Notes: a model not told the origin generated them from the letters alone. Positions 21,604 through 57,626 are shown, counted from the stretch's first letter. The stretch is DNA of 64,000 nucleotides from Acidobacteriota bacterium (GCA_963666055.2 CAXWPH010000013.1:1-64000); one strand, 5' to 3'. Program-made: numbers and translations.

Positions 21604-21663
21604 GTGCTGCCTGCCGAGTTCGCATCTGACCCCGAGCGCCTCGCCCGCTTCGAGCAGGAGGCC
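21604..21663 (+). pseudogene. Orphan kinase fragment ([20 protein letters not shown])
   Basis: Near-identical to the N-terminal region of the kinases starting at 27962 and 51259. Confidence 0.85.
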
Positions 21664-21676
21664 CCGTGCCGCCGGG

Positions 21677-22255
21677 ATCGAGTTCAAAACAGCGCTCGAC
21701 GGTTGTAATAGCCCTGCGTTTCGGTTTCAGTGCGCCTGTGTCACCGGCTCCCCTTGGCTCGCTGGTGGCGTTTCGAAGTCCGCGCCTTCGCGTTGGTCGC
21801 GGAAGCGCAGGTAAAAGGAGCGTCAGAATGTCCGAACGTATCCTCTTAGCCCTGATCGTAGTCGTCGCGATCCTGGGAACCGTCCCGGCCATTGCCGAAG
21901 CGGCCCCGTATGCGGGACTCGCCCTCGTCGTCCTCGGTTTGGTTGCGGGTTTCATAGGCAGCGACAGCGCTGATGTCAACCAACGGACGGCGTTCTACGT
22001 CGTCGCCGTGGCACTCCCCGTGTTTTCCGACAGTCTGGACGCCATCGCTGTCGTCGGTCCCTGGGTCAATTCAGTTCTCGACGGCGTTGCGACCGGCATC
22101 CAGGGCATGGCCGTCGCGTTCGTGCTAATGCAGCTCAAGGTCAGGATCATGCCCGCCGCCTGATGGCGTAGCTCGGCGAACCCATGCCCCTCGGGAGGGC
22201 CTAGATGGCGGCGCATCGGCACCCCGTTGGAGTTGAGCGTCCGGTGCATCTCCAC
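21677..22255 (+). repeat. ~580-bp segment duplicated in inverted orientation at 45228-45806
   Basis: Both copies run from ATCGAGTTCAAAACAGCG to ...ATCTCCAC and contain the same gene. Confidence 0.9.
21828..22163 (+). CDS. Small four-TM membrane protein, copy 1
   Basis: AGGAG RBS; hydrophobic 111 aa; paralog at 45320-45655. Confidence 0.8.
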   Translation: MSERILLALIVVVAILGTVPAIAEAAPYAGLALVVLGLVAGFIGSDSADVNQRTAFYVVAVALPVFSDSLDAIAVVGPWVNSVLDGVATGIQGMAVAFVLMQLKVRIMPAA

Positions 22256-22393
22256 GGCCCTAGCCCACCCTCGCCAGCCGAGCCACGTACCCCGCGTGGT
22301 GTTCGAAATCGTGACCGTGGGGCTACTACCTCCATTTCGCCACTGTTCGAGGTGCCTCCCCCGCCTCCGCCCCCGCCCCGTTGGTTCTCATCC

Positions 22394-22442
22394 GCTCTGG
22401 CGATAGGCTTCAGGCGCTCACCCACCCTGCTTCGAAAGCGCC
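22394..22442 (+). promoter_or_regulatory. Conserved kinase leader (TAGGCT -10-like box plus GGCGCT/AGCGCC stem); six copies in window
   Basis: Same motif precedes ATGs at 22443, 27962, 37710, 51259, 53760 and 57577. Confidence 0.7.
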
Positions 22443-22832
22443 ATGGACCCCGGCACCAAACTCGGCCACTACGAGATCCTGTCCCCGCTCGGTGAAGGCG
22501 GAATGGGGCAGGTGTATCGAGCACGCGACACGACGCTGGATCGTGATGTCGCCATCAAGGTGCTGCCGGAGGATTTCGCCAGCGACGCGAACCGGCTGGC
22601 TCGCTTCGAGCGCGAAGCCAAGCTGCTCGCCTCCCTGAACCATCCCAACATCGCCACGATCTTCGGCTTCGAGGAATCCGACGGCGTGCGCTTCATCGCC
22701 ATGGAGCTGGTGGAGGGGCAAAGCCTCGCCGAGCGCATTGAAGCGTCTGGTCGCATCGAGGTCGATGAGGCGCTAGAGATCGCTCGCCGGATCGCACTGG
22801 CGCTCGAAGCCGCTCACGAAGCCGGCGTCATC
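22443..22832 (+). pseudogene. Ser/Thr kinase 5' stub ending just before HRD
   Basis: [13 protein letters not shown]...AAHEAGVI, then runs head-on into the GH99-like gene. Confidence 0.9.
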
Positions 22833-24026
22833 GAAAGTCGCCTGGCGCGCTCGCGCTCCTCCATTTCGCTCCAGCTCACCTGGGCGGGCGGATGGAATGG
22901 GTTGGGCACATAACACGAGTCCTCAGGGACTGTTCTGCGGGCGATGCTGTCGAAGCCGGGGTTCGTATTGAACGAGTAGACCAGACCGTCGCTGTTGGCG
23001 CGTTCGGAGTGCCCTTGCCAGGTCGACGGGTCGAGGAAGTTGTCGTACACGGCGATGCCATCGAAGCCGGACTTGCGGGTGCGGTTCATGTTCAAGGAAT
23101 CGGCCAGCATCGTCACCTGGTCGAATTCCCCTGCGAAACGCTCGCGGACGCCGTCGGTCTGCTGCTTCCAGATCTCGTCGGGGGTGTAGTCCGGTACGTC
23201 ATGGACGATGTCGTGGCAATCGGTGACCTGCGCTGCAACGATCGTGCGGAAAGACTTGAACACTGGCCCGACCTTGCCGTTGGCGTCGCGCAGTAGCAGA
23301 AATGCGTCCCAGCCCCGCCGTTCGCCGTACTCTTGGATCAGGTAGGTGATGTCGTCGAGATAACGGTGGGCACGATCGTGCCGATACGGTTCGATGTGGA
23401 ACATCACCTTGATGTCGTGATCGGCCATCACGTCCATCACGGCATGGGCGGACCCTCCGGAGAAGCTGTCGGCGCCCCACCAGCTCAAGTTCACGGCGCC
23501 CGCCCCGACTTCTTTGATCCAGCGTGCGTGCCGCTCGATCACCTTCCTGTTGCGGGAGCTGTAGGCTCCCAACTTTGGAACGCTGGTGGCGGCGAGGTCG
23601 TGCGGTGGGACGCGATCCCACTGCTGCCAGTGACGGAAAGGATCGTTGTTGTACCAGGGGTAGTACTCGAAGATGAAGTGGCGGTTCAGATCACCGCACC
23701 GTAGCTTCAGCAGCCGGCCGAACTCAGCCCACGGGAAGGCGACGCCGGCGCGCTTCGAGGGATCGGCAGCGAGGATGAGCCGCTGGAGGTCGGCGCCGCC
23801 ATAGCGCAGCTCCATCTCCAACGAGGAAAAACCATGCCGCTCAAGCGCGGGGTCCGGAAGCCCCGTCAAACCGGCTGGCGTGTACGGTCCAGGCGTCGGT
23901 CCACTCCCCCCCCCCCCCAGCCGCCGGTAGAGACCGCGCCACCAGGCCACCGCCGAAGCCGAACGCGGCTGGTGCCGCGATCGCTCCGAGGCTGCCGAGC
24001 ACGCGTCGTCGTGACCAGTCAATCAT
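22833..24026 (-). pseudogene. Tat-exported glycoside hydrolase family 99-like protein; frameshift at C-run near 23910; 3'-truncated
   Basis: 'SRRRVL' Tat motif, 'EYYPWY', 'PKLGAYSS', 'SWWG', 'FHIEPY'. Confidence 0.7.
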
Positions 24027-25335
24027 GGGACAATTGAACCCTCTGACACGACCAAACGGCAAGTCTGTCCGGGGTCGCGCTGATTTCGCATCGGCGGCCT
24101 GGGAGGTCCCACTGGCCGTCCGGTGAGAAAAACGGGGAGCGTGGGAACTCAGAAAACAGGAGAGTGCTCTCTTGCTTGTCAAGCGAGCGGACGTATAGCT
24201 CGGGCTGGGCGCCGGCACTGCCCGTGACGTAGGCGATGTGTGTGCCATCCGGCGATAGGACAGCTCCCCCCCGATAACTTTGGTTGATGCCCTCTTCGGT
24301 GAGCCGCACCTTCAGGTGCATGGGGGGCGCAGGCGGCTGAGGATCTTGGCGCATCAAGGACCACATCGCCAGCGCCGTGACCGCGACCGCGCCAATTCCG
24401 ATAGGTGTCGGGATGTAGCGTCGCCAGGAGGGCCGCACAGCCTCACCAGAGCCAGCATTCAGGCCGAGGCCCCCATCTGGATCGTTGATGGTATTAACGA
24501 TGCCGATACGGGCATCGGCGATGTCGTGGAGCCGCCGTTCAGGGTCCTTCTCTAGGCACTGTCGCAGAAGAAGCTGGATGAGCGGGGAGGTCGTCTCCGG
24601 CACCGCGATCCAGTCTGGCTCCTCTTTGAGGATCGCCGCCATCGTGTCGCTGACGGTCTTGCCGTCGAAGGCGCGCTTGCCGGCGAGCATCTCGTACAGC
24701 ACACAGCCGAAGGCCCAGATGTCCGTGCGCTTATCGACGGGCTGACCCCGTGCCTGCTCCGGGCTCATGTAGGGAGCCGTACCCATGATCACGCCGGTGC
24801 CAGTGGCGGCCATCATCGTGGGTGAGTGGCTCAGATCCGACGACGGATCGCTGCCGTCCACTTCGTAGGCTTTAGCCAGCCCGAAGTCGAGCACCTTGAC
24901 CGTGCCATCGGGTGACACCTGCACGTTGGCGGGTTTCAGATCGCGATGGATGACACCAGCCTCGTGAGCGGCTTCGAGCGCCAGGGCGATCCGGCGGCCG
25001 ATCTCTAGCGCCTCATCGATCTCGATGCGTCCGGTGGCTTCAATGCGCTCGGCGAGGCTCTGCCCCTCGACCAACTCCATGGCGATGAAGCGCACTCCGT
25101 CGGACTCATCGAACCCATGGATGGTGGCGATGTTGGGGTGATTCAGCGAGGCGAGCAGCTTGGCTTCACGCTCGAAGCGAGCCAGTCGGTTGGCATCGCT
25201 GGCGAAGTCCTCCGGCAGCACCTTGATGGCGACATCACGATCCAGCGTCGTGTCGCGTGCTCGGTACACCTGACCCATGCCGCCTTCACCCAGCGGGGAC
25301 AGGATCTCGTAGTGGCCGAGCGCCTTGCCGATCAT
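24019..25335 (-). pseudogene. Ser/Thr kinase-TM-beta-propeller, type B copy 1, truncated near 24105
   Basis: Intact VAIK/HRDLKPAN/DFG/GTAPYMSPE and TM; propeller stops after 'SPDGQW'. Confidence 0.88.
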
Positions 25336-27962
25336 CAGGAGCCGCCTGTCGGCACCAGCCGCTTCAATTCCTCGAACCAGTTGACCAGAACCTGCAGCTT
25401 CGGCACCGGGCCGTCCTTCACCATCAGGAACCTCTGTCCATCCGGGTAGACGTCGTAGTTGAAGGCCCAGTCGATGTATCCATAGCTATAGTCACCGCGA
25501 AAAAGCAGCTCGGGGTCGCCTGGGTTGAAGGTCGCGCCAGCCTCATAGGGGACGACCCACATTTCGTCATTGTTCCGGTAGAACAACTCCGCGCCGGCGC
25601 GCGACCAGGCGGGCTCCTTGCCACCACCGATTGAAACCAGCACGGGCGCGCCGCCCTGCGGGTAAGGGACGACCCAAATCTGATCGAGCCCTGAGCGGTC
25701 GGAAGTGTAGGCAAGCCATCGGCCATCCGGGGAGAACTTCGCCCCGCGCTCGTTGTACTCGCCGACGAGGAATTCCTGCAGATCGTGTTCCTGGCCATCG
25801 CCCATCGGCAGCAGGAGAACGTCCCGCTGATTGTTGGGACCTTGCTCGATAGCAAGAGTGCCGTCGGCGGACCAGGAACTCGGAATGGTGCGAACATTGC
25901 TCTCGAATGTCAGTTGTTCCACGCCCCCGCTTCCGTCGGCACGGACGCGAAACGTATTAATACCTGTGGGGGAGAAGGAAACAAAGGCGACCCATTCTCC
26001 ATCCGGACTCCACACTGGCCAGGTTGCGAGCCCTGTGCCGGGGCGGTAGAGCGGTATACGGCGTCCACCAGCATCGAGATCAAGGCTGTAGATACCTGAG
26101 CCACCACCCCGCGGAATGCGAGCGTACGCAACCCTGGAGCCGCTCGGCGAAAACTGTGGCTGCACCCATCCCGCGTCCTGCGCAGCATAAGCGGGCGTCG
26201 GGTTGCCATCGCGGTCCAACGTAACCAGCGATGATTCGACCAGTTGGGTCGCAGCCTCCAGATAGACGAGATGGCCACTGTCGGCCACCCCGTAATGCGC
26301 GCCGCCATAGAACACCCACTGCACTTCGGCCACTACCTCAACAGCATCGCCCAGCACATCTCCCGAGGCGATGTCGAAGGCCACCGCCGACAAGGCTCCG
26401 CCTCGCCGAAAGAGGAGATGCCCCGTTGACGTGTAGGCCGCCGCGGATCCGTCGAGCAAGATCGTCGTGATGCCATCGGCCAGTGAAAGGTGCGCCACCT
26501 GTGAGCGATCATCGCTGCCCCCCGAGATAGTGAACAAGATCGATTCTCCCCCGGGCAGGAAGTGAGGCCAGACATGGACCGTCCCCTCGTCTCCCGGGGG
26601 CACGGCGTAGATGATTTCGCCCTTCGGTCCCCAGGTCGCGCCCACCGCTTCAGGCGTTTCACAAATAGCCTCGCGCCTACCTCCCTGTATGGGGACTTTC
26701 CACAGCACACCTTGGGCATGGAAGCCGAGCCACTCGGAGTTGGGTGAGAAAAACTGATATTCGCCTCCCGTCGTCCCCTCGACTTCGTACACGTTCGGAT
26801 GGTCCAGCGCGCGCGCGTAGATGACTTGGTTTCCCTCTCCGTTAACGCCCGTGTACGCGATGAACCGACCGTCAGACGACAGCGCCGAGGAGGCACCGAC
26901 CGACAGGATGCCCGGCATCTCGACTTCGTAGTGTTCCGTGGGTAGGGGTGGCGGGGGTAGCGATTGCGCAAAGAACACGCCAGCGAGAGCGGCGAAGACA
27001 CCGGCAACGGCCCATGGGAGCACACGCGCCCCTGAGACCACCCACGCAGGATCCGTTACCTCTGCCGTAGCGTCGTGCGCAGAACGTGCGGTGCCCGACT
27101 CCACCTCAAGGGCGATTGCCTTCAGGTCCACTGCGAGATCGCCGGCACCCTGGTAGCGACCACCGGGCTCCTTCGCCACGCTCTTTCGGATGATGCGTTG
27201 TAGCTCGTCGGGCAGTGACGGATCAGACTCCTGAATCGGCGTTGGGTCATCGTGTTGGATGTGTGCCAGCGTTTCGGCGATACTGCGACCGGCGAACGCC
27301 CGTACACCGCTCACCATCTCGTAGAGCACGCAGCCGAAGGCGAACAGATCGGCCCGATGGTCGATCTTGTCGGAGCCCTCCACCTGCTCCGGTGCCATGT
27401 AGCCGGCTGTACCCATCACCTGCCCGGCGACCGTCCCCATCATCGTGGGTGACTGCGTCGCACCGCCCGGTGAGCCTGCCCCCGCCACCTCGGTGAGCTT
27501 TGCCAGGCCGAAGTCCAGCACCTTGGCGTGCCCTTCCTTGGTGACGAAGATGTTCTCCGGCTTCAGATCCCGGTGGATGATCCCGGCAGCGTGAGCTGCC
27601 GCCAGTGCCTCGGCGATCTCGGTGGCCAACCCGAGCGCCTTCTTGAGCGGCAGCGCACCCTTCTGTAGCGGCTCCCGCAGCGTGTCTCCTTCCAGGTACT
27701 CCTGCACCATGAAGTGGGTGTCGCCTTCGGTGCCGATATCGTGAACGACCGCGATGTGCGGATGGTTCAGGGCGGCGGCAGCACGGGCTTCCTGCTCGAA
27801 GCGGGCGAGGCGCTCGGGGTCAGAGGCGAACTCAGCAGGCAGCACCTTGATGGCCACCTTGCGGCCCAGGCGCGTGTCCTGCGCCAGGTACACCTCGCCC
27901 ATGCCGCCAGCACCGAGCTGCTCGGTGATCTCGTAGGGGCCTAGTTTGGTGCCGGGTTCCAT
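25335..27962 (-). CDS. Hanks-type Ser/Thr kinase-TM-PD40/TolB-like beta-propeller, type A copy 1
   Basis: [20 protein letters not shown]; TM; SPDG repeats; ends [15 protein letters not shown]. Confidence 0.92.
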
Positions 27963-28292
27963 GGCGCTCCCGAAGCAGGGAGGGGGTGAGCGCCTGAAGC
28001 GTATCGCTGGAGGGGGCGAGATCCAACGAAGGCCGCGGATAGGGAGCGTTGCGCGCTCTACCGCCCGTATCCGTATCGAGCCGTCGTTGCCCTCACCCAC
28101 TCTCGAGCGCCGGGAATCACAGCGCCCGCTGATCTCCGACCTGCCCGGCGGAGACACGCTCCCCGGCCGATCTCGCGCTCCATGTCCCCGCATTCAACGC
28201 TTCCGAGTGGTCACGGAGTCCCGGTGACTGAGTTCAACTCGGTGATGGCACTGCGTAAGAAGCTGCGGAAGCGGATATCGGTGCCGGCCTAG

Positions 28293-35031: not shown

Positions 35032-35121
35032 GACTCGAACGGCTAATGTCCCGTCGAAGCCTTAACGACTATGGCCAACACCGAAGCTAACCCTTTTGGA
35101 ACAAACATAAGGAGGACTGCC

Positions 35122-35628: not shown

Positions 35629-35667
35629 TGTCGCGTCATACAGCGGGCCAGTAGCTAGAGCAACAGC

Positions 35668-44333: not shown

Positions 44334-44393
44334 CTACGGGTCCGTCGGCACGAGCCGCTTTAGCTCGTCGAACCAGTTGGTGATCAGCGTCAG
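44334..44393 (-). repeat. Orphan kinase 3' tail ([18 protein letters not shown])
   Basis: Near-identical to 45145-45202 and the tail at 55930. Confidence 0.9.
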
Positions 44394-44559
44394 GGGCAGA
44401 AGGGCCCATTCGCTGTACGTGACGGAGCAGACTCTCGACTGCCGGTTGTACCTGATGCTGCGCCCCTTCCTCGTGTCGATCCCCGGTTTGGCCTACGATC
44501 AGCGGCATCCCACGGTGACAGACACGGGCCCCGCTGCCCATTGTGTGAGGAGTGCCGCG

Positions 44560-45060
44560 ATGAAACTCATGGGGCGAATTGTATTGACGCTGGTGGTGCT
44601 GCTCGTTGGGCCCATGTCAGCGGTCAGTGATGAGGCGTCCATCCAGGTGGCCGACTCGGTCGAAGCGGTTCGGCAGATGTTCGTGGGCAATTACGAGCTC
44701 GTAGAATACGAGTCGTTTCCGTCGCCTGGCGAGGTCGTTGCGCGGCACTATGTCGCTCGGATCATGTACGACGCCTACGGCAACATGGCGGCAATCGGCA
44801 TGCCGAAAGACCTGCCAGAGCTCGACCGAGCGTCGGACGACGAACGGGCACGACGTGGCTTTGCCTATTTCGGCAAGTTCCAGATCAACATCGAGGAAGG
44901 CACCGTCACCCACCACTTGATCGGCTCGCCAGTAGCGGCGCGATCGGTGGGCGAGGGCTGGGTGCGGTATTACGAGTTCGACGGCGACCTGCTGACGCTG
45001 TCCATCAAGAACGCTGAGGGTCGCATCACCGGCCAGCTAACATGGAAGAAGTTTGGATAG
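44560..45060 (+). CDS. Secreted lipocalin-like domain protein
   Basis: 'FVGNYELV', 'IMYDAYGNM', 'FAYFGKF', 'LTWKK'; signal peptide. Confidence 0.75.
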   Translation: MKLMGRIVLTLVVLLVGPMSAVSDEASIQVADSVEAVRQMFVGNYELVEYESFPSPGEVVARHYVARIMYDAYGNMAAIGMPKDLPELDRASDDERARRGFAYFGKFQINIEEGTVTHHLIGSPVAARSVGEGWVRYYEFDGDLLTLSIKNAEGRITGQLTWKKFG

Positions 45061-45144
45061 GGCGGAGCCTAGGTGATCGTTCCTGGCGCTACGGACGAGC
45101 GGAATCGAAGGTCGCTAGGCGGCTCGCGAGACTCGGCTACGACC

Positions 45145-45202
45145 CTACGGGTCCGTCGGCACGAGCCGCTTCAGCTCGTCGAACCAGTTGGTGATCAGAA
45201 CC
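45145..45202 (-). repeat. Orphan kinase 3' tail ([18 protein letters not shown])
   Basis: Direct repeat of the tails at 44334 and 45837. Confidence 0.9.
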
Positions 45203-45319
45203 ACATCGGTCTTCAGTCGAGACAGGTGTGGAGATACACCGGCCCCTCAACTCCAACGGGGTGCCGACGCGCCGCCACCTCGCCCCTCCTGAGGGACACG
45301 GGTTCGCCGAGCTACGCCA

Positions 45320-45836: not shown

Positions 45837-48560
45837 CTACCGGTCCGTCGGCACGAGCCGCTTCAGCTCCTCGAACCAGTTGGTGACCAGCGTCACATGG
45901 CCGCTGCCGGTCTGGCTCTGGCCGGCGTCGGGGAACATCACGAATTGCTGACCGTCGCCCGTCACGTCGTAGTCGGCATAACAACATCCACTGTTGATAG
46001 TCATTCCGTCTGGCCCGCCAAGAAAACTCCCCTCGAAAAGCTGCTCGGCTCTGCTGTAGGTGAAGGAATCACCTTCCGTCTCTACAGCAACCACCATGAT
46101 CCCTGTATCGGTGCGGTAGAACAGCTCCCGACCGTCGGCTGACCATCTGGGCTGGCCGCCACCGCTGCTGGAGAGCTGCCACTTGCCCGGTCCAGGAGGA
46201 TAGGGCCGGACATAGACTTCATTGCTTCCCGACTCGTAGGAGTCGTAAGCGATCCAGCGACCGTCCGGTGAGAAAGCCGACCACGCGTCGGTAGCATCGG
46301 TATTCACAAAGACCTCCGGCTCCCGATCCTCCTCAAGCGGCAACACCAAAATGTCCCAGCCGGTCGTCTGTGGGTGATTCTCGCCGTATACGAGAAACCT
46401 GCCATCCGCAGACCACGAATACAGCCACTGTCCCCTGTCGCTCTCTGTCAGCCGCTCCACAGTTCCCGATCCGTCGGCACGAGTCCGATAGATGTTCGTC
46501 GCTCCGTCGCGGTTCGACATGAATGCGAGAAACTGCCCGTCCGGTGACCAAACAGGTTCGTCGTCGTTCGCTTCATCAAACGTCAGCCTTGTCGGCACAC
46601 CCCGCTGGATGTCATAGATCCATACGTCAGCGTTTTCGTTGACCAAGGCGCGCACGGCTAGCCGTGTGCCGCCCGGCGACAACCGAGGAGAACTGTAGGA
46701 GCCAGGCTCATCCCACAGCGGTGTCGCGTTGCCCTGCCGGTCTACCCATGCGACGGGATATGCCTCCTGAAGAACGGCCTCGCTCAGATACGCCAGCATT
46801 CCTGTACTTGAGAAGCTGAACTGTGCGACAACCCCCCCCCAACCAAAGGTGGCAAGCCCCTGCACGATGGGTACCGGCTAGCCCTTCACCTCCAGCTCTC
46901 CCAGATCAAACGCGACAGCAAACAGGGTTCCCTGGTTGTGATAGACGAGATGCCCCGTAGGTACGTAACGTCCTTGTCCGCCTTGCTGCACGACCCGTCG
47001 TTGTCTCGTCTCTAGATCCAGCACTTCGATGGCAGACGAATACGCTCCTGGCTCCCCGGCCAAGGAGGAGAACAGCACCGACTTGCCGTCAGGCAGCACC
47101 TGCGGGTCGTTGTGCCAGAGTTCCCCTTGATCGAGTTGAGTCAATGGTTCCGGTTCTCCCCCGCTGGCGGACACGCGGGAGAGGCCGGAGAAGGAGCCGA
47201 TGATGATCGTGTCGTCCGCCCCCCAGCTTCCCGTCAGGGTGCCAGAACCGAAGGAACTGATAGTCAGGGGGGTGCCGCCTATGACGGGGACTATCTTCAG
47301 TTCCGCGCCGCTGAAAAAACCTATCCACTGGCCGTCCGGTGAGAAGAATGGTGCCAATACAGAGCCAGAGACCAAGCGAACGCCCGCTAGCTGATCGAGC
47401 GAGCGAACGTATAGCTCCCTTCGGTCTACTCCGATACCCACGATGTAGACGATCTGTGTGCCATCCGGCGATAGGACAACTCCCTCAGAAGCCAAGCTAA
47501 GATCATCATCGGCCAGCCTCACCTCCAGGTGCATGGGGGACGCAGGTGGCTGATGATTGTGATCTGTCAGGGTCCACGTCAAAAAGGTTGCCGCTGCGGC
47601 GATGGCGACGCCGAGACCGGCTGCCACAGGCATGGGGACGTAACGCCACCAAGACGGCTTTGCAGCCTCACCCGAGCCAACCGTCAGACCGAGGCCACCA
47701 TCTAGGTCGTTGATGACGTAGACGATGCCGATTCGCGCATCAGCGATGTCGTGAAGACGGTCACGCGGTTCCTTCGTAAGACACCGGTCGAGAAGTCGTC
47801 GTAATGCTCTCGGGGTAGCCGCCGGGAGCACTGCCCAGTCCGGCTCCGCCCTGAGAATCGCCGCCATGGTGTCGCTGACTGTCTTACCGTCGAAGGCGCG
47901 CTTGCCCACCAGCATCTCGTACAGCACGCAGCCGAACGACCAGATATCGCTACGCTTATCGACGGGCTCCCCCCGTGCCTGCTCCGGGCTCATGTAGGGA
48001 GCCGTGCCCATGATCACGCCGGTGCCTGTGGCGGCCATCATCGTGGGCGACTGGCTAAGGCCGGACGACGGCTCACTGCCTGCCGCTTCGTAGGCTTTGG
48101 CCAGCCCGAAGTCGAGCACCTTGACGGTGCCATCGGGTGCAACCTGGACGTTGGCGGGCTTCAAATCACGATGGATGACACCAGCCTCGTGAGCGGCTTC
48201 CAGTGCCAGGGCGATCCGTCGGGCGATCTCCAGTGCCTCATCTACGCCGATGCGGCCACTGGACTTGATGCGATCCGCGAGGTTGTCGCCCTCCACCAAC
48301 TCCATGGCGATGAACCGAACACCGTCCGATTCCTCGAAGCCGAAGATCGTGGCGATGTTGGGGTGGTTCAGTGAGGCGAGCAGCTTGGCTTCGCGCTCGA
48401 ACCGGGCTAGTCGGTTGGCGTCGCTAGCAAAGTCCTCCGGCAGCACCTTGATGGCGACATCACGATCCAGCGTCGTATCGCGTGCTCGATACACCTGCCC
48501 CATGCCGCCTTCACCGAGCGGGGCGAGGATCTCGTAGTGCCCGAGCGTCTTGCCGATCAT
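45837..48560 (-). pseudogene. Ser/Thr kinase-TM-beta-propeller, type B copy 2, one in-frame TAG at 46878-46880
   Basis: ORFs 46878-48560 and 45837-46865 share a frame (EVKG*PVPIVQG); ends [14 protein letters not shown]. Confidence 0.88.
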
Positions 48561-51259
48561 CAGGAGCCGCCCGTGGGCACTAGCCGGTTCAATTCCTCAA
48601 ACCAGTTGAGCACAACGTTGAGTCGTGTGCTGGGTGCCGCGCCCCCGGTCTCATCACTACCAGCGGGCACCGTCACGAGGAACCTCTGGCCATCGGCGGT
48701 GACATCGAAGTTGGACAGGGCCTGCATGACGATGTCCGAGACTTCGACAGGGTCGGATGCGGAAAACGACTCCAAATCCACTTCCGCAACGAGGATGCCT
48801 GGGCTGTTCCAGGATTCGTAGTAAATCTCCCTTCCATCCCGCGACCAGCGAGGCCACCAACCACCACGGGTACTCGTAGAGACCGGAAATGTCCGACCGC
48901 TCGATACCTCCCGCACGTACACCTCGAATTGCCCGGTCTCGTCGGAATGAAAGGCGAAGAAGCGACCGTCCGGCGAGAAACTGGCCCAAAACTCACTGGC
49001 GGCGGTATCGACGTGTATTTCCGTATCACCTGTATCGAGAGCCAGTATCCCCAGGTCGATCTGATTTTCGGGCCCGCTGCCAAACAGCAGCATCTCACCG
49101 TCGTCCGAGATCGATATCGGGTACACGTCAGCCTCTGTATCCAACACCAGCTCGGCGTCGAGACTCCGGTCAGCCCGGCGCTTGAAGATGTCGTTGTTGC
49201 CGCCCCGATCCGACCTGAAGAAGACCCACTGTCCATCGGGCGACCAAACGGGCACTTCGTTGTTGCCCTCCGTGTTCAGCAGCACCTGGCTGCCCCCTCG
49301 TTCGATCTCGTAGATCCAGATGTCCCAGTCCCCATCATTTCCCTGGATTTGGAGCGCGATGCGCTGGTCATCCGGCGAGAGGCCCAAGTACTGAGACCGA
49401 CGGGGCTCGAAGGGCAGCGGCTCGACTTGGCCGTCACGATCCACCCAGACGAGTAGGGAACTGCCCGAAGCGCCGCCATTCCTCATGTGATAGACGAGCA
49501 TCCCGGTCTCGGAGAAGTCGAACGAGACCCCGCCTTCAACGTCGGCGGCGAGGTTCTCGACCACGGGTATCGGCGAGCCGGTCGTCTCCAGGGTATCGAG
49601 GTCGAAGGGCACCGCGAACAACGCTCCGGCGTTTGAATACACCAGATGGCCCGTTGGCACGTATCGGCCGTAGGTGCCGCCCTGGTGCACGACCTGGCGC
49701 TCGCCGGTCTCGAGATCTACGACCTCGAGGTTGGCCCTGTCGAAACCTCCGGTCTCGGTCGAAGTGAATAGCACTGCCTTTCCGCCGGGTAAGAACTGGG
49801 GCCAGCGGTGGCTGCGCTCGCCCTCTGAAAGCTCGGTGAGCAGTCCCGGCTCACCTTCGACAGCCGACACGAGAAACAGGCCGCTGTTGACGTTGGGTGT
49901 GAAGACGATCGTATCGTCGGGCCCCCAATCCGCACCTCGGCTCCTGTCCACCGGCGCGATCGACTGCGGGGTGCCTCCAGTTACGGACGCCTTTTTCAGC
50001 TCCGAAATGGTGACGAACCCTACCCACTGCCCGTCGGGCGAGAAGAAGGGATGGTACGGCGCACCCAGGATGGTTGCCGAGGACGCGAGTGTCGTCGAGT
50101 CCTGCTGGTCGAGAGCGCGAAGGTACAGCGTGCTTCCACCGTCCGGGTCACCCTCGACGTAGGCAACGCGCCGTCCATCGGGCGATAGCACGACTGCGGA
50201 GCCGGGCCCACTCAGGATCGTGTCGACGAGGGGGTCGAGCTGCAGGCGGATGGTGTTTCCGGGCTCCGGTTGCATTGCCCACCAGGTGGCAAGAACCGCC
50301 AGAAGGGCGCTGGCCACAGCTATCGGGACGCCCAGCTTCCACGAGATGCCGCGTGTCGTTTCCACGGCGACAGGGGGTGTCGGAAGCGCCGCTCCTGACT
50401 CCACGTCTGTACCGAGCGCCTGTATGTCGACGACCAGATCGCCGGCTGTCTGGTAACGCTTGGCCGGCTCCTTCGCGAGTGCCTTGCGGACGATCCTCTG
50501 CAACTCTATCGGCAACGACCGGTCGATCTCCCCAATCGCTGGCGGCTCATCGGACAGGATGTGCGCCAAGGTCTCGTGGACGTTCTTCCCGCCGAATGCC
50601 TGCCTGCCCGTGACCATCTCATAGAGCAAACAGCCGAAGGCGAACAGGTCGGCTCGATGGTCGATCTTGTCGGAGCCTTCCACCTGCTCTGGGGCCATGT
50701 AGCCGGCGGTGCCCATCACCTGACCGGCCACCGTGCCCATCATCGTGGGTGATTGAGTTGCACCGCCCGGTGAGCCTGCCGCCACCTCGGTCAGCTTCGC
50801 CAGGCCGAAGTCCAGCACCTTGGCGTGGCCCTCCTTGGTGACGAAGATGTTCTCCGGCTTCAGATCCCGGTGGATGATGCCGGCGGCGTGAGCAGCAGCC
50901 AGCGCCTCGGCGATCTCGGTGGCTAATCCGAGCGCCTTCTTGAGCGGCAGCGCACCCTTGCCCAGCGGCTCCCGAAGTGTGTCTCCCTCCAGGTACTCCT
51001 GCACCATGAAGTGGGTGTCGCCTTCGGTGCCGATATCGTGAACGACCGCGATGTGCGGGTGGTTCAGCGCGGCGGCAGCGCGGGCCTCCTGCTCGAAGCG
51101 GGCCAGGCGCTCGGGGTCAGAGGCGAACTCGGCGGGCAGCACCTTGATGGCTACCTTGCGACCCAGGCGGGTGTCCTGGGCCAGGTACACCTCTCCCATG
51201 CCGCCCGCACCGAGCTGCTCGGTGATCTCGTAGGGGCCTAGTTTGGTGCCGGGTTCCAT
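48560..51259 (-). CDS. Hanks-type Ser/Thr kinase-TM-PD40 beta-propeller, type A copy 2
   Basis: All catalytic motifs, TM and SPDG repeats present; ends [15 protein letters not shown]. Confidence 0.93.
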
Positions 51260-51430
51260 GGCGCTTCCGATGCGGGGTAGGGGAGTGCCTGAAGCCTATC
51301 TCTGGGGCAGTCGAGGGTCCACGGGGCAGGCAGGATGGCACCTGCTCTCAGACGACCTCCATGCCCACGCCAGGGGGCGGGGGTATCAGGAATCCCGCCG
51401 GTCGGTAACCCGCTCAGAGACGACCCTGAG

Positions 51431-52636
51431 TCATTGCGGGATCTCGCTCGTCGAACACAATATGCTGGCCGCTCTGGGACCAATGGGAATGGTCGGAGCC
51501 GGCGCACCGAACTGTGACTCAACCCAGATACACACCAGATCGCGTAACACGTCTCTACCGTTATCGCTGTTCGTCAACATGACGATCGCCCGTCGTCTGT
51601 GTGGGGCGGATACGAATAGCGCTCGCCATCCAAAGTTTGATCCACCGTGGTTTGCGCTCCGCACACCCTCGGCTCCCAGCGGGCCGGTCATGTAGCCGAG
51701 GCCACTTTGTGCGGTGCCGTCATGGATGGAAACAGGTTGGTACATTGAGGCGATGGTCTCGCGTTCGAGGACGCCGCGCCCCGGGGCGGCCCGGTTCGGA
51801 CCAACCATGCTGGCGGCCACGAATCGGGCCAGATCGGTGACAGTCGTGTAGAGACCGGCACCAGCCGTTCCGGCAAAGCGATAGGTCGGATGTGTCTCGC
51901 CCGACGACCGGTGCGGGGACGCCATCGGGGCGAGTGACTCGTCCCAACCAAATCGGCTACTGGTCATGCCGAGTCGATCGAGAATTTCGCGTTGCATATA
52001 TTCAGCGAACGTGGTGCCCGTTACTTCTTCGACAAGCAGCTGGAGTAGTACGAAACCGCCCCCGGAGTAACGGAATCCCTGTCCCGGCTCTTGAATCTGG
52101 ACAACCGGTGATCCCCCGCTGGCATATACGCTACCCGTGTAGTCGCCCAACAGTTTCTGCTTGAGGGTCGGGAGCGGCGCAGGGACTGCAAATCCCGGAA
52201 TGCTTGGCATCGACAGACCGGCCGTGTGACTCAGGAGACGGCGCACCGTCACTTCATCACTGTCGAACGCCGAATCCGGGAGGCGCCAACGACTGAGGAA
52301 CGCGGCTACCGGCCGGTCGAGATCGAGTTTCCCTTGCTCCACCAGATTCATGACACCCCACGCCGTGACGGTCTTGGAGATCGACCCGGCGTTGAAGATC
52401 GTCTCCGCAGCGATGACGGGATCTTCTGCATCGGCGACTCCGAAGCCTTTCGCCCAAATCGCCGCGCCCTCCTCGACGATCGCAACGGCCGCTCCCACGA
52501 CATTGTGGCGCTCCAGCGCATCCGGTATCGCCGCCACGAGTGTCGCTTGGGTGTCCGGTGGATCCTGCACGAAACCCGAGGCCGTTATCGATTGGGGAGA
52601 CCACACCAACCAGAGACCGATAACGAGCGCACTCAA
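51431..52636 (-). CDS. Serine hydrolase, beta-lactamase class C/PBP-like
   Basis: SISK (SxxK), 'LLSHTAG', 'YSGGG', 'HGGSN'. Confidence 0.9.
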   Translation of the reverse strand: MSALVIGLWLVWSPQSITASGFVQDPPDTQATLVAAIPDALERHNVVGAAVAIVEEGAAIWAKGFGVADAEDPVIAAETIFNAGSISKTVTAWGVMNLVEQGKLDLDRPVAAFLSRWRLPDSAFDSDEVTVRRLLSHTAGLSMPSIPGFAVPAPLPTLKQKLLGDYTGSVYASGGSPVVQIQEPGQGFRYSGGGFVLLQLLVEEVTGTTFAEYMQREILDRLGMTSSRFGWDESLAPMASPHRSSGETHPTYRFAGTAGAGLYTTVTDLARFVAASMVGPNRAAPGRGVLERETIASMYQPVSIHDGTAQSGLGYMTGPLGAEGVRSANHGGSNFGWRALFVSAPHRRRAIVMLTNSDNGRDVLRDLVCIWVESQFGAPAPTIPIGPRAASILCSTSEIPQ

Positions 52637-52702
52637 TCAAAAGACTCCGTATGAACGAGAAACGGGGTTGAGTTTTCATCGGCCACGATCGGATCGTCGC
52701 GC

Positions 52703-53353
52703 CTATCCGAGGCCCGCAAGGGTTTGCCCTAAACGGATCACCGGCAAGATGAACACCCGTAAGGCGCCGAGCCATATCAGCGCGATCAGGATGAAGAAGC
52801 CGTATGGCTGTATGGAGCGGTAGAACCGCGCCACCGAGCCGGACAGCGTCGCCGAGAGGATCCACGAGCCGTCCAGCGGCGGAATCGGGATCATGTTGAA
52901 GGCGGCCAGCAGCAAATTGATCAGCAAGGAAGCCACCAGCAACTGCAGGACTGGCAGAAACACGCTTGCTGAGACAAGGCCGACGAGCACTTCCTGGTTG
53001 GCACGCATCAAACGTATCAAGAACACGCAAATCACCGCTAAGAGCACGTTGCTCAGCGGCCCCGCGGCGGCAATCCAGGCGTGATCTCGCTTCGGACGGA
53101 GCAGGTTGGCCGTATTGACCGGCACCGGCTTCGCAGCACCGAACGGTGGCAGCCCGGCGAAGATCATCATGGCCGGGAACAAGATCGTCATTATCGGATC
53201 GATATGGGCGAGCGGGTTCATGGTCACTCGGCCAAGCATCCGTGCCGTCGGGTCGCCGAGTCGGTCGGCCGACCAGGCGTGCGCCGACTCGTGAAACGAG
53301 ATCGCGAACAGCAGCGCGACGATCTGGGTGACGATGAGGCCGGCTCCCTCCAT
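52703..53353 (-). CDS. Site-2 protease family (M50) membrane metalloprotease
   Basis: HESAH, 'AAAGPLSN', 'NMIPIPPLDG'. Confidence 0.93.
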   Translation of the reverse strand: MEGAGLIVTQIVALLFAISFHESAHAWSADRLGDPTARMLGRVTMNPLAHIDPIMTILFPAMMIFAGLPPFGAAKPVPVNTANLLRPKRDHAWIAAAGPLSNVLLAVICVFLIRLMRANQEVLVGLVSASVFLPVLQLLVASLLINLLLAAFNMIPIPPLDGSWILSATLSGSVARFYRSIQPYGFFILIALIWLGALRVFILPVIRLGQTLAGLG

Positions 53354-53362
53354 AGTGTGATG

Positions 53363-53515
53363 CTATCCCGCCGGTCTGGTCGGTGCTAGAACGTCGCGGA
53401 TCGACCCGGCGAGGTTGATGCCGACGACCTCGGCCAATTCCGCCTCTGAGGCCCGGCGCACCCCGGCAAGGGACCCGAACCTACGAAGCAAAGCGCGTTG
53501 GCGCTTCGGTCCGAG
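53363..53515 (-). pseudogene. uvrC: UvrC C-terminal helix-hairpin-helix fragment
   Basis: [32 protein letters not shown]..., read in a frame not in the ORF track. Confidence 0.75.
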
Positions 53516-53760: not shown

Positions 53761-54041
53761 GGCGCTCCCGAAGCATGGTGGCTGAGCGCATGAAGCGTAT
53801 CGTCAGGCCATGCGAAGGTCCACGGGGCGCGAAGCCACCCGCTATACGTCAGTCCGCACATCAGAGATGCTCCGTCGGATCCACGGCGGAGAGCGTCTGG
53901 GAGTTGTCCCGCAGCGAATCCCTTGAGGAGCCCAACGATCGGTGGTTGTATCCAGGCGTCCCGATACTGACCAAGCCAAGAGCCTGACTCGACCAGGGTT
54001 ATCTCGGAAATCCCGGGAGGTAGACCGTGGCTGGAGGATCG

Positions 54042-55841
54042 ATGACGGAAACCAGGCCCGGGCTGTGGATCCTTTTGCTGGCGAGCCTGAGCGTATCGGC
54101 TTGTCAGCCGTCAACGCAGGACGCGTCGCCAGGCGATGCTGCCAGCCCTGCCGATTTGGTGCTGCAGGGCGGTAAGTTCTTTACCGTCGACGAAGCCCAG
54201 GTCTGGGCTGAAGCCGTCGCGATCAAGGACGGCAGGTTCGTCTACGTAGGCGACAACGCTGGTGCACAGAGCTTCGTTGGCCCCGATACCGATCGCCATG
54301 ACCTCGGCGGCAAGCTGGCAATTCCCGGTCTAGTGGATTCCCATACACACCCAGGTCTGATGGGGCGGGAGACGGCCGGGTTTACCGCGGTCCCCGTGGG
54401 TGGTGGTCCCAGAGGGACGCTGCCCAGGGACGGGAACAAGGAGGAGATCCTCGCTGCGGTGGAGGCGTATGCCCAAGCCAACCTGGACCTTGCCTGGATC
54501 GAGATGGGTAGCTGGTCCGGGGATCTGAACGGCGTCGCGGGCCCACATAGGAGAGATTTGGATCGCGTCGTACCGGATCGACCAGTGATGTTAGGAAGCG
54601 TCCATAGCCTTTGGGTCAATTCCGTGGCGCTTGAGATGATGGGGGTCGACAGCACCACACCCGATCCGGTACCCGGTCTTGCATACTTCGTACGAGATGC
54701 CGATGGTGAGCCTACCGGCTGGATCAAGGAATATGCCATCTGGCCCTATGCGCAGCACCTTACTGACGTTGACCTGGAGTCCAACAAGGAGGGTATTGTC
54801 ACCTTCTTGGAGTACCTGTCACGCCACGGCGTTACCTCACTCTTTGACGCTGGCAACTTCAACTACCACGATCTCACGTACTCGTTCCTGGCTGAGCTAG
54901 AGGCGGCCGGTCGTCTGCCGGTTCGCTACGAGGGCAGCTATCACATCTTCTTGCCCGATCATGTGCCCGATGCGATCGATGAGCTACAGCGGCTGCGCCG
55001 CACCTACGGCAGCGAACGTCTACGGTTCAATACCATCATGATTCACTTGGACGGCACCAATGAGATTCGTACCGGCGCGGTGCTCGAGCCGTACAGCGAT
55101 GACCCGGGCAACCGGGGCACGACCCTGCTCGACACCGAGGAACTGCGTGACTTCATCGTGCAGCTTCACGAAGCCAGGATCGATCTGCACATGCACATCG
55201 TGGGCGACCGGGGCGTGCGCATCGCACTGGATGCGGTGGAAGCAGCGCGCAGGTCGGTCGACGGCGAACTGTATCCACGCGTCACCCTGTGTGAGCTGGA
55301 CATCATCGATACGGCTGACTACCCCCGTTTCAAACAGCTGGGTGTCATTGCCAACTACACGCCCCAGTGGCACGGCCTGGGAAACCGACTGCCGTTGACC
55401 GCCGGTACCCTTGGCCCCCGCTTCGAAAGAATGTTGCTGGTGCAACCGTTACTGGATGACGGCGCGGTGGTGGCCTTCTCCAGCGGCGTGACATCGTTCA
55501 GGGCAATGGAGCGGGCCAACCCTTACCTGGGGATGCAGATCGGCCACAACCGCCAATACCATCAACAAGGTGAGGCTGCGCCGATAAGGCTGCCGATGAG
55601 CGAACGCCTGGACCTGGAGGATCTGGTCCAGGGATATACCTTGAGCGGCGCCTATCAGTTGCGTATGGAGGAGCAGCTTGGCTCAATCGAGGTAGGCAAG
55701 CTCGCCGACCTGGTCGTGTTGGATCGCAACCTGTTCGAAATCGATCGCTACGAGATCCACGAGGTTCGACCCGAAGCGGTCATCATGGACGGCGAGATCA
55801 TCAGGGGAAGCTTAGACGGTGGCGCGGAGATGAGGCCATAG
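54042..55841 (+). CDS. Amidohydrolase 3 (YtcJ-like) lipoprotein
   Basis: Lipobox VSAC, 'PGLVDSHTHP', 'GSIEVGKLADLVVL'. Confidence 0.85.
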   Translation: MTETRPGLWILLLASLSVSACQPSTQDASPGDAASPADLVLQGGKFFTVDEAQVWAEAVAIKDGRFVYVGDNAGAQSFVGPDTDRHDLGGKLAIPGLVDSHTHPGLMGRETAGFTAVPVGGGPRGTLPRDGNKEEILAAVEAYAQANLDLAWIEMGSWSGDLNGVAGPHRRDLDRVVPDRPVMLGSVHSLWVNSVALEMMGVDSTTPDPVPGLAYFVRDADGEPTGWIKEYAIWPYAQHLTDVDLESNKEGIVTFLEYLSRHGVTSLFDAGNFNYHDLTYSFLAELEAAGRLPVRYEGSYHIFLPDHVPDAIDELQRLRRTYGSERLRFNTIMIHLDGTNEIRTGAVLEPYSDDPGNRGTTLLDTEELRDFIVQLHEARIDLHMHIVGDRGVRIALDAVEAARRSVDGELYPRVTLCELDIIDTADYPRFKQLGVIANYTPQWHGLGNRLPLTAGTLGPRFERMLLVQPLLDDGAVVAFSSGVTSFRAMERANPYLGMQIGHNRQYHQQGEAAPIRLPMSERLDLEDLVQGYTLSGAYQLRMEEQLGSIEVGKLADLVVLDRNLFEIDRYEIHEVRPEAVIMDGEIIRGSLDGGAEMRP

Positions 55842-55929
55842 CGGCAGCTGCGGCTTCGTGCGCGCGTGGGCACAGTTCGGAACGTCACACTAGTCGGGTG
55901 ACGCTCCTGCGCGACGATAGCCAACGGCG

Positions 55930-56070
55930 CTACGGGTCCGTCGGCACGAGCCGCTTCAGCTCGTCGAACCAGTTGGTGACCAGCGTCACCATGCCCGTCT
56001 GGGTGTCCTGGCCGGGGTCGGGGAACATCACGAACCGCTGACCGTCACCCGTCACGTCGTAGTCTGACGC
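55930..56070 (-). repeat. Orphan kinase 3' tail, long form ([18 protein letters not shown]...[14 protein letters not shown])
   Basis: Closely matches the 3' end of the type B gene at 45837. Confidence 0.9.
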
Positions 56071-56086
56071 GTTCAGACCGGCGACT

Positions 56087-57227
56087 TCACCTCGGCTCCC
56101 CCCCCCCCGCTTCGGCGGTCTCACGTTCCTGCGCCCGCGCCCCGAGAAGCACATTGGACAGCGCGTAGTTGGCTTCGTGGCAGGCGTATTCGTATACCAG
56201 ATCAGGCAGTGCCTTGAACGGCACCTGAGCAGTCCATGGCCTCGAGTAGAAGGCGGGATCGTCGATGGTGAACTCGTAGTTGATGGTGTGCTCATCGACG
56301 CGCGTGAGGCGTTCGGTCACCTTGAAATCTTCCGACCCGCCAGCAAAGTTAGTGTTTCCGTTGAGCTGCTGGCGCGGCAGATTTGTCGTCTCCACCACCA
56401 GCGTATCTCCTTCCCAACGGCCCCACGAGTCGCCCAACCACGGACGGATGTGCGCTGGCAGCGGCGTAGGCTCGCCCAACTTGATGATGCGAGCGTCGTG
56501 CACCATTTCGGTCATGACCATCACGTGATCGGCGGTCTGAACGATGGTGTAGTTGTTGTTGTAGAAGTAGTTGGGGATCATCGGCGGGCCGGCGTTGGAG
56601 CCGAACGAAAGTAAGCAGCGCAAGGCAAGCGAGAGATTCTCCGGATTGTCGTAATTCGCCAAACTGGGCCCGCTGTTGCGCCAGCTCGCTGCGCGCCTTT
56701 TCTCCCTCGGGGCTCAACGGTGGGATACGCCCGTCCGGCGGGTCCACCACCAACGAGCTGCGTGGCTCGCCGTTCCAGATCGCCACCCGATCGCCCGGGT
56801 CCAAGTAGAAGATGTTGTAGGCACCGGCTCCCCCGAAGGGCGGATCATAGAGCGCCGAGATCTTATCGTAGAGCGCCGAGGCCTCATTCTCGAGCGAATC
56901 GCCCCAGGGTACCCCCCCCACCGCCGGTGCCTCACGGTCGGGGTCGCTGTCCGCCAAGTGGGTATCGATGAACGTCGCTCGGTCGCCCTCGAGGGCAGCG
57001 ACTTGTTCCGGCGCCATCACACGCTCGTATCCCGGCGGACGCTCGATCCGCGTCATCGTCGCGTTGGTCCAGTTACCCTGCAGATCCGGATGGCCGTCGG
57101 GTGTCCGTGGCAGGACCCAGGCCTCGGTGGCGGCGTCCTGTGTCTGCGTCAGGGCCGGCAACGCCAGGCCAAGCGCCAGCACGGCACAAGCGAGGCCCGC
57201 TAGCGCGCTGCGAGTCGCGATCCTCAT
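56087..57227 (-). CDS. Secreted hypothetical protein ('PRTPDGHPDLQG' family); +1 frameshift near 56655
   Basis: Signal peptide; 'GDSWGRWEGDTLVVET', 'YEYACHE'. Confidence 0.75.
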
Positions 57228-57239
57228 CTGTTTCCCCTA

Positions 57240-57457
57240 TTAACCAATCGGGTTCTTGCGCAGATGCCCGTACAGTAGCTCCTCGACGAACTCCACGCAC
57301 TTGAACTGACCGAGGCGGGCGTCCGGGTCGATATTGCGGTACAACGGCAGGCGGATCGTCCACGGACGCGAGAACGTCTCGGGATCTTCGATAGTGGCCT
57401 CGTACCAGATGTCGTCGGGGCTCGCCATCTCGTACCGCTCGGTTACCGTCATCGCCG
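57240..57457 (-). pseudogene. C-terminal fragment of a paralogous secreted protein
   Basis: 'VTERY...YEATIEDPETFSRPWT' parallels the downstream gene; 5' end replaced by a kinase stub. Confidence 0.7.
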
Positions 57458-57626
57458 CACCTTGATGGCTACCTTGCGGCCCAGGCGCGTGTCCTGCGCC
57501 AGGTACACCTCGCCCATGCCGCCAGCGCCGAGCTGCTCGCTGATCTCGTAGGGGCCTAGTTTGGTGCCGGGGTCCATGGCGCTGCCGATGCGGGGTGGGT
57601 GAGCGCCTGAAGCCTATCGCCAGAGC
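57458..57626 (-). pseudogene. Kinase leader plus 40-codon 5' stub ([15 protein letters not shown]...VAIKV)
   Basis: Near-identical to type A kinase starts; ATG at 57577. Confidence 0.9.

Follow-up and report, generated by a model that had tools for sequence, protein, structure and literature searches.

Why should the beginnings and ends of one gene family lie scattered, detached from the genes to which they belong, among genes of unrelated kinds? The question is raised by a 64,000-nt stretch of DNA from an Acidobacteriota bacterium (GCA_963666055.2, CAXWPH010000013.1:1-64000), hereafter the window, in which an earlier note made from the sequence alone had listed eleven orphan pieces of a kinase-propeller gene, each abutting unrelated cargo, and had interpreted them as the anchors of an integron-like array. 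Pieces of the kinase family were confirmed at all eleven positions by self-BLAST, tblastn, and a genome-wide catalogue. The data indicate that the paralog ends probably act as homology arms and as a means of promoter capture, in a process driven by host enzymes without a dedicated recombinase. All parts of this mechanism are already known, which limits the surprise.

The window is the first 64,000 nt of contig C13 of G000, a 5.7-Mb genome in 15 contigs. The family was placed in it by self-BLAST and by tblastn with the 899-aa kinase encoded at 48560-51259 as the query. Domain search and translation gave an architecture of a Pkinase domain, a single hydrophobic span, and a PD40 propeller, which together with a conserved C-terminal motif assigns the family to the Acidobacteriota-wide Ser/Thr kinase-PD40 proteins. 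The nearest relatives in named genomes are almost all from Acidobacteriota, across which these genes occur singly or in tandem. The catalogue, compiled by blastn with 28 near-full members as queries, comprised in G000 82 short 5' pieces (61 of them leader bearing), 59 3' pieces (53 shorter than 400 nt), 26 internal pieces, and 29 near-full elements of at least 2.3 kb, grouped in 21 clusters of three or more. Mirror copies on contig C8 (see below) were dropped from all G000 counts except the early tail-pattern count. Copy coverage was about 110 at gene nt 0 to 50, about 81 in the last 50 nt, and 18 to 32 across the propeller, declining steadily through the kinase domain even though that domain is equally conserved. 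What survives as stubs are the starts and ends of members of a kinase-propeller family of about 30 copies, and such stubs number about 140 per genome. Pieces below the detection limit also exist, such as a kinase fragment of about 17 nt that ends a 3.7-kb, 99.9% identical duplication at C5:13364.

Stubs were also present in the congeners. Raw class counts, restricted to stretches around pattern matches and including some diverged full kinases, were 69 5' pieces, 28 tails, 18 internal pieces, and 5 full genes in G002 (857 kb); 24, 16, 6, and 3, respectively, in G004 (415 kb); and 5, 4, 2, and 2 in G003 (160 kb). A 29-nt tail pattern, allowing up to 3 mismatches, matched 70 places in G000 (C8 mirror copies included; 0 when the pattern was reversed), 31 in G002, 20 in G004, 11 in G003, and 3 in G001. 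It reached at most 6 places per genome in other genera and was present in 12 of 21 genomes. Around some 80 distant homologs (1.29 Mb) there were 8 orphan-head and 17 tail matches, about 4 of the latter likely true tails, compared with 18 orphan heads and 19 tails in a set of only 0.40 Mb around full genes in G000. Leaving stubs is, on these sequence comparisons, an old tendency, and its high density is special to this genus.

The first part of the answer came from comparing the junctions of 251 short stubs from four genomes. In 27 stub pairs the inner junction and the cargo were shared, and in 24 of these the outer flank was unrelated, identity being already at or below 70% within the first 30 nt outside the stub in 20. 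Base-by-base inspection of 15 alignments located a switch between paralog alleles inside the stub in three tails (C9:180242, C9:2042577, and C9:2796648) and three heads (C8:341927, C8:440373, and C8:1195781). In the G002 tail at C9:2075407, the left half, on the cargo side, matches one G000 tail, and the right half, along with the trailer, a different one. Three tail pairs were ambiguous, being alike up to the stub end or about 25 nt further. Two units were common to three species at 90 to 98% identity, versus about 82% for core DNA (G003/G004), and one of them stood in a fourth context, followed by a tail, on a metagenome contig. Concerted evolution was also evident, with a 1,865-nt identical tract between two distant paralogs and, in 14 intact genes, the same codon for the same residue at 71% in the first 20 and last 19 codons versus 35 to 63% in the other segments sampled. 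Pieces shared the orientation of their neighbor in 143 of 167 and 75 of 82 cases, an arrangement needed for crossover between direct repeats, and 15 of the 59 tails had a 5' end within the 400 nt that follow. The stubs thus likely act as short homology arms for host recombination, as the earlier note had supposed, and the variation of cargo among relatives that it had named as support was indeed seen among the congeners. Units consisting of stub and cargo appear to be exchanged, to other loci and to congeneric species, by homologous recombination within the conserved stub; RecA would be the enzyme, and the same crossovers would keep the ends alike.

The second part lies in the promoter carried by the 5' stubs, the clearest functional signal and one that the earlier note had overlooked. 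All six leaders in the window contain T[TG]G and TA..CT blocks, in this order, separated by a spacer of 17 nt, and across 108 stub leaders both blocks are conserved far better than the spacer. In 1,792 regions upstream of other genes, the pattern peaks at the 17-nt spacer (40 occurrences versus 15 to 28 with other spacers and 18 antisense). The leader has a sharp outer edge near -66 that coincides with the -35 block of this promoter-like pattern. The orientation test covered 196 of 219 junctions after de-duplication, in four genomes. Leader-bearing stubs faced a gene start rather than a gene end in a ratio of 71:27, versus 32:44 for tails (P = 9e-5) and 9:13 for leaderless heads. The median distance to the gene start was 81 nt for leader stubs versus 336 nt for tails (P = 8.5e-9), and the start lay within 100 nt in 43/71 versus 3/32. 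Because starts are so close, genes behind leader stubs often have no room for a promoter of their own, while tail-adjacent genes keep theirs. Start pieces therefore likely double as portable promoters for the gene joined behind them, a role deduced from their position. Heads transcribing into a gene from just before its start would be preferentially kept, we propose, because that gene has lost its own promoter.

Two further roles were considered and rejected. The tails showed no orientation bias, and no terminator-like site was found at tails in 44000-58000, as a terminator role would demand. Translational fusion as a purpose was discarded as well, the 11 of 66 stubs that read on for at least 120 codons being explicable by proximity alone.

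How the stubs came to be joined to foreign genes is best followed in the window itself, where the island carrying them comprises the following features.

20137..20178, tRNA-Phe-like remnant marking the island's left edge, 97.6% identical to C7:119139-119180, inside a tRNA-Phe
21602..21674, plus strand, internal kinase N-lobe piece (gene nt 116-190) without promoter or start codon
21673..22255, plus strand, small membrane-protein gene unit, with an inverted 93% copy at 45228-45810
22376..22832, plus strand, promoter leader and 130-codon kinase head, ATG 22443
22832..24108, minus strand, GH99-like gene copy with its 3' end cut, 99.5% identical to C2:110916-112191
24108..25335, minus strand, second (B) kinase of a tandem pair, truncated near codon 410
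25335..28032, minus strand, full kinase-PD40 gene with promoter leader, ATG 27962, 875 aa
31340..35031, plus strand, integrated-element remnant encoding a DnaB-N/AAA_25 protein, HTH_17, and a tyrosine recombinase, without link to the stubs
35071..35628, plus strand, globin cargo gene
35643..35728, plus strand, orphan kinase 3' tail
35860..37509, plus strand, TPR-protein cargo gene
37646..37769, plus strand, promoter leader and 20-codon head, ATG 37710
39991..40621, minus strand, orphan 3' tail of 630 nt
40622..42898, minus strand, SpdH-like FAD oxidoreductase unit, with 96-97% copies in G002 and G004 islands
42862..42897, minus strand, 36-nt head fragment before the SpdH-like gene
43001..44044, plus strand, Vgb-lyase-like propeller cargo gene, with a 95% copy in a G002 island
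44334..44392, minus strand, orphan 3' tail of 59 nt
44393..45134, plus strand, lipocalin-like cargo flanked by two tails
45145..45209, minus strand, orphan 3' tail of 65 nt
45837..48560, minus strand, second (B) kinase-PD40 gene with a frameshift near 46.85 kb
48560..51327, minus strand, full kinase-PD40 gene with promoter leader, ATG 51259, 899 aa (Pkinase, one membrane span, PD40)
51431..52636, minus strand, serine-hydrolase (beta-lactamase fold) cargo gene
52637..53514, minus strand, site-2 protease (S2P) gene copy, matching the core operon at C12:45562-46439 with 99.3% identity
53515..53828, minus strand, promoter leader and 49-codon head fused to a 96-nt tail piece, ATG 53760
53910..55843, plus strand, amidohydrolase cargo unit, with 86-96% copies at several G000 and congener loci
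55930..56064, minus strand, orphan 3' tail of 135 nt
56086..57453, minus strand, frameshifted cargo with a cut 5' end, 83% identical to C12:404482-405861
57454..57648, minus strand, promoter leader and 41-codon head, ATG 57577
C13:66090-66187, tRNA-SeC at the right edge of the island, outside the window

A few of the earlier assignments change in this list. The piece at 21604 is internal to the gene and not a 5' stub. The one at 53516 is a tail piece, as claimed, although it lacks the last ~10 codons and is fused directly to the 53760 head. The 36-nt head at 42862-42897 and the B kinase cut at 24108 had been overlooked. Several junctions recur elsewhere: a longer, promoter-bearing form of the junction between head and SpdH-like gene lies at C15:1362238, the tail-plus-lipocalin unit is found again at C8:38001-38800 (94%) and in G002, and a third copy of the small membrane-protein unit stands in G002 behind a promoter-only stub.

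The inner ends of the stubs are ragged: in G000, the end points of heads range between -32 and +487 (median, +70) and the lengths of tails between 30 and 1,163 nt (median, 65), with G002 alike. The GH99-like and S2P genes are recent chromosomal copies, from the C2 and C12 loci listed, and at their three kinase-joined ends the overlap is 0 to 1 nt. The GH99-like copy has kinase pieces at both ends, each with an overlap of about 1 nt; the S2P copy carries the cut ends of both native neighbor genes and joins the tail piece with zero overlap. Other recent copies meeting kinase pieces overlap by about 2 nt. These near-blunt joins agree with the prior suggestion that new junctions arise illegitimately. 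Most of 104 listed high-identity repeats, many of them insertion sequence (IS) copies, end away from kinase pieces. A promoter-only stub in G002 has the same upstream flank as a full G000 kinase, so a full gene has been converted to a stub. Genes for Ku and LigD are intact and adjacent, and RecA and ComEC are intact. As we picture it, island DNA would break and rejoin other DNA with little or no homology, probably with Ku and LigD joining the ends or else by homology-facilitated illegitimate recombination. Where such a break fell within a kinase gene, a stub-cargo junction would result, and repeated rounds would shorten the stub from its inner side. A 3.2-kb copy (C6:315240/C15:796589) with its crossover in the leader and a 2-nt overlap at the far end fits homology-facilitated illegitimate recombination; the GH99-like copy, illegitimate at both ends, does not. 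Nonhomologous end joining is able to capture DNA at breaks (Dupuy et al. 2019, PMC6379672), and the resemblance lies in the presence of Ku and LigD and in the near-blunt insertion of fragments in either orientation; there, however, capture was shown at an engineered break, whereas in our case it is deduced from junctions alone. An RNA-templated origin was rejected, since the heads begin at the -35 block and thus reach further upstream than a transcript would be expected to start.

What share of island rearrangement do the kinase ends account for? Synteny between G000 and G002 stops at 20119, the G002 flanks of the island are 91 to 93% identical, and from the PCMT gene to the core genes past tRNA-SeC G002 has about 10 kb with zero kinase pieces. 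With 21 clusters genome-wide and the whole island absent from the orthologous G002 site, the idea of a single kinase locus turned into an array found no support. Five cargo units of the window (the membrane gene, SpdH-like, Vgb-like, lipocalin, and amidohydrolase units) recur at 86 to 96% identity in other G002 islands, which are patchworks of 0.5- to 5-kb segments dispersed over G000. In the G002 islands, synteny chains ended within 120 nt of a short kinase piece in 62/298 cases, versus 18.7 ± 4.5 expected (1,000 shuffles). Both flanks were kept at 5/77 isolated pieces versus 200/308 random island points. Gaps with a piece had flanks scored as the same in 10, different in 20, one-sided in 43, and none in 11, and gaps without a piece in 79, 57, 70, and 27, respectively; a change on at least one side was found in 63/73 scorable gaps with a piece versus 127/206 without. 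Breakpoints favor intergenic DNA. No clear rule by replichore emerged when strand was compared with GC skew. Shuffling thus affects the islands at large, with the kinase ends as frequent joints that it does not require; they are the commonest, though not the sole, joints in the islands.

A number of results weigh against the role that we assign to the stubs. About 79% of the G002 island breakpoints lie away from kinase pieces. Gaps free of pieces are often breakpoints too, so that the same-versus-different comparison gives P = 0.016 overall and, for length-matched gaps of 200 to 600 nt, a nonsignificant P = 0.29. Among distinct units, 15 of 17 had a changed outer flank, a modest excess over the gap control (P = 0.034). 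Junctions were traced to the kinase family as a whole, and two of them may have overlaps of 3 to 7 nt, so that end joining is only a probable route. For the persistence of tails, the account offers no more than their use as homology arms and as left-over flanks. Concerning the promoter, genes were called with a simple caller of our own, and 11 of the 71 leader distances are zero, the gene call running into the stub; without them, 32/60 starts lie within 100 nt. A stock sigma-70 scan (at least 9 of 12 matches) omits these leaders. Of the 4 leader stubs in the window, just 2 point into a co-oriented gene; promoter donation fits the S2P copy and the truncated gene behind 57454 but not the heads at 22443 and 37710.

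These results give most room to the view that the stubs are neutral debris which does nothing, the islands being shuffled everywhere and the kinase merely being their most abundant gene, with the ends easiest to recognize. The majority of breakpoints off kinase pieces and the loss of significance on length matching both accord with it, as does the fact that the ends are the most conserved, and hence most detectable, parts of the gene. Other island families also leave short repeated leaders, and short orphan heads occur at low density near these kinases in other Acidobacteriota. We nevertheless consider this rather unlikely. It does not predict that the orientation and distance bias should be confined to promoter-bearing stubs, or that paralog switches should lie inside the stubs. 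Decay in place would give direct fusions of heads to tails or internal pieces, found in only 3/84 and 2/63 short heads, and a 16-mer scan of the island zones gave just 14 further tiny pieces, 4 of the 6 intergenic ones from gene ends. That the stubs were created by assembly chimeras at repeats, one condition under which the earlier note would have fallen, is scarcely credible. Its attraction is that the assembly does contain artifacts: C8 is mirrored about a center near 48250 (positions sum to 96499), a fold-back of about 18 kb per side, and from 58156 through 64000 and on to 66188 C13 is 99.9% identical to C6:1-8030. The stubs themselves are not mis-assembled copies, because the best non-self match spanning each is 80 to 95% identical; identical inner junctions occur in independently assembled genomes of other species, and orphan tails at 3/3 metagenome loci. 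Bridging was judged from the longest contig pieces of 4 of 24 listed public runs, with at least 31 nt on each side. Junctions 21602, 22255/22376, 39991, 44322, and 51327 were bridged by contigs of runs X1, X2, and X3 (two studies), and a sixth, 53828, in X1, which may be the source sample. None of the contig pieces listed bridged 22832, 53514, or 57454, and one at 24108 had 30 nt on one side, under the 31-nt rule. Run contigs start exactly at 22832 and 52637, as expected because two near-identical copies branch there.

A dedicated site-specific recombinase, which would move cassettes in and out through a leader or tail site as an integron does, is largely refuted and in our estimate very improbable, although some features would suit it: a near-invariant 45-nt tail with a 6-bp inverted repeat around a 7-nt spacer, a head-to-head fusion of two tails forming a perfect palindrome over that repeat (G000 C2:361836-361900), the sharp leader edge near -66, the co-orientation of pieces, and a G002 integron integrase above the cutoff about 17 kb from a stub cluster. 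Against these, breakpoints are spread and switch points vary from stub to stub, with no fixed crossover base; the sharp edge is simply the -35 block; and the tyrosine recombinase of the window is broken, being cut and fused to a TolB-like propeller. An integron integrase exceeded the cutoff in 1 of 21 genomes, the best G000 match to TIGR02249 being a stop-containing remnant (149 bits; cutoff, 265). A heuristic attC search of our own, using an R-box pattern plus folding rather than a curated attC model, returned 44 matches genome-wide, zero on C13, with at most one weak match closer than 900 nt to a piece. The idea of cassettes running from a 5' stub to a 3' tail, as first envisaged, was also rejected, for heads and tails are not paired: the kind of co-oriented piece that comes next after a short head is close to what abundance gives (head, 21; tail, 12; long, 11; internal, 7 in G000 and 20, 8, 3, and 5, respectively, in G002). 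We attach as little credence to the kinase ends being termini of a non-autonomous transposable element whose deletion derivatives capture filler in abortive gap repair. Pack-MULE and Ds elements offer an analogy, internal-deletion derivatives of this type capturing filler. Both ends are retained here with lengths tapering from each, and the filler includes recent 99% chromosomal copies, but comparison by eye of the leader start with the tail end showed no terminal inverted repeat, the 3' outer edge is ragged, the unpaired heads and tails are again at odds with it, and the internal genes are ordinary kinases, single or tandem across Acidobacteriota. A Chi-like stop signal was rejected as well, a 7-mer in inverted order in leader and tail not being over-represented elsewhere (ratio, 1.07; rank 3229 of 13988), as was phage carriage, an exact tail match being absent from viral contigs.

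The preferred reading, with paralog ends as homology arms and promoter donors, has partial precedents. Closest in layout and in the mechanism proposed are the displaced C-terminal tips of Rhs proteins (Jackson et al. 2009, PMC2935791) and the effector-immunity arrays of type VI secretion systems (T6SS) (Kirchberger et al. 2017, PMC5361080). There, too, co-oriented fragments of variable length from one conserved gene are each joined to variable DNA, and the explanations offered, none of which calls for an integrase, are homologous recombination at the conserved piece, circular intermediates, or homology-facilitated illegitimate recombination. In contrast to those systems, where the variable part is a toxin domain plus immunity gene and may complete the parent protein, the cargo here consists of unrelated whole genes for enzymes and exported proteins, both gene ends serve as anchors in 21 clusters, and the head supplies a promoter. 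In the lpl cluster of Staphylococcus aureus, a conserved 130-nt stretch is the crossover site (Tsuru and Kobayashi 2008, PMC2568036). The use of a brief conserved segment of island paralogs for crossover, variable switch points, and tail-spacer-head units bridging adjacent genes are common to both, but lpl reshuffles its own gene halves at one locus, whereas here foreign genes cross loci and species and most kinase copies are destroyed. In aquatic prokaryotes, replacement flexible genomic islands are exchanged whole via homologous conserved core-genome flanks (Lopez-Perez et al. 2014, PMC4033161), compared with 1- to 3-kb units and internal arms of 50 to 200 nt in our case. Similar promoter DNA before unrelated genes has been described as putative mobile promoters (Nijveen et al. 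2012, PMC3575422), and the leaders, at least 80% identical over 50 nt upstream of unrelated genes, qualify as such. The published families are mostly pairs, and that survey removed promoters running into paralogous coding DNA, unlike the 61 stub-borne copies of one promoter found here in a single genome, which are also recombination arms. Genes can also come under a new promoter through low-homology rearrangements (Li and Bock 2019, PMC6614815). Variable genes behind a reusable promoter in co-oriented strings resemble an integron in outline, but with no attC sites, no intact G000 integrase, no fixed crossover, and cargo often cut, the system is not a member. The Solibacter genome paper (PMC3174227) reports many kinase paralogs, less than 50% identical, and does not mention stubs in the parts considered; a word-matched search of the open-access literature returned no description of kinase stubs in islands or of this combination.

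Integrons and IS elements apart, it is an open question how acquired genes come by a promoter as well as a chromosomal place. A signaling-gene family appears to supply both here by host enzymes alone, at more than 100 sites per genome, with units crossing species borders inside the genus. This offers a countable, testable natural case of promoter capture, along with a mechanism by which the islands of these uncultured bacteria become patchworks. It is conceivable, though we would not count on it, that selection maintains the roughly 140 dispersed kinase-end pads as a network, analogous to an integron but genome-wide and free of any integrase. A gene once joined to a stub would then become transferable genus-wide to every pad and be switched on by a standard promoter, perhaps kinase regulated, and the network would perhaps be fed by breaks aimed at kinase genes. 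Annotators should be aware that such genomes are rich in kinase "pseudogenes" and in spurious in-frame kinase-cargo fusions.

Two other statements about the cargo held only in part. Truncation in mid-gene is evident for the GH99-like copy, which lacks its 3' end relative to the native gene, for the gene behind 57454, and for the integrase-propeller fusion, and is not established for the serine hydrolase, which has no close paralog for comparison. Most cargo in the window looks exported by eye, but genome-wide the trend is weak (P about 0.05 to 0.06), a crude hydrophobic-stretch test being positive for 54/129 stub-adjacent genes versus 114/357 other island genes and 1,233/3,675 others.

Some observations adjoin these subjects. 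At five or more loci, among them G000 C10:8305-10836, C15:414812-417403, and C15:525449-528032 and G002 C9:1136116 and C9:1410214, a gene of 810 to 840 codons, sulfatase-like by eye, replaces the first kinase of a tandem pair and sits between a promoter-bearing head, of differing length, and the second kinase's start. The amidohydrolase family has a sharply bounded leader of its own (window 53910-54014), with orphan copies of about 110 nt at C10:1422-1525 and C15:371352-371462, and other island families may leave promoter stubs as well. Two convincing attC-like sites lie at G000:C15:773819-775284, without an integrase in G000; the G002 integron integrase above the cutoff is at G002:C8:1214363-1215181. 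The frameshift of the B kinase varies by run near 46831, the X2 contig having one extra base that the X3 contig lacks. Depth differences along the island in run X2 might reflect polymorphic parts, contig depth not being copy number. Beyond tRNA-SeC, C6 continues into core genes and C13 into another integrated element with a tyrosine recombinase, a divergence that suggests strain heterogeneity at selC.

Outside the island, a tRNA search found none inside the window. The core cluster at 4385-12590 encodes the trimethylamine methyltransferase MttB, ETF, a dimethylglycine/sarcosine dehydrogenase-like protein, and an Fe-S protein, a gene content suggestive of methylamine or betaine use. An inverted-repeat element of 150/280 nt at 2539-2691 and 12592-12876, MITE- or REPIN-like, exists in more than 120 copies at about 96% identity and is also abundant in G002 to G004 and in G007. 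Finally, in the element beside tRNA-SeC (58550-61725), three copies of a 60- to 75-nt repeat (58565, 59661, and 61665) surround duplicated small genes, an HTH gene, and a GIY-YIG gene.

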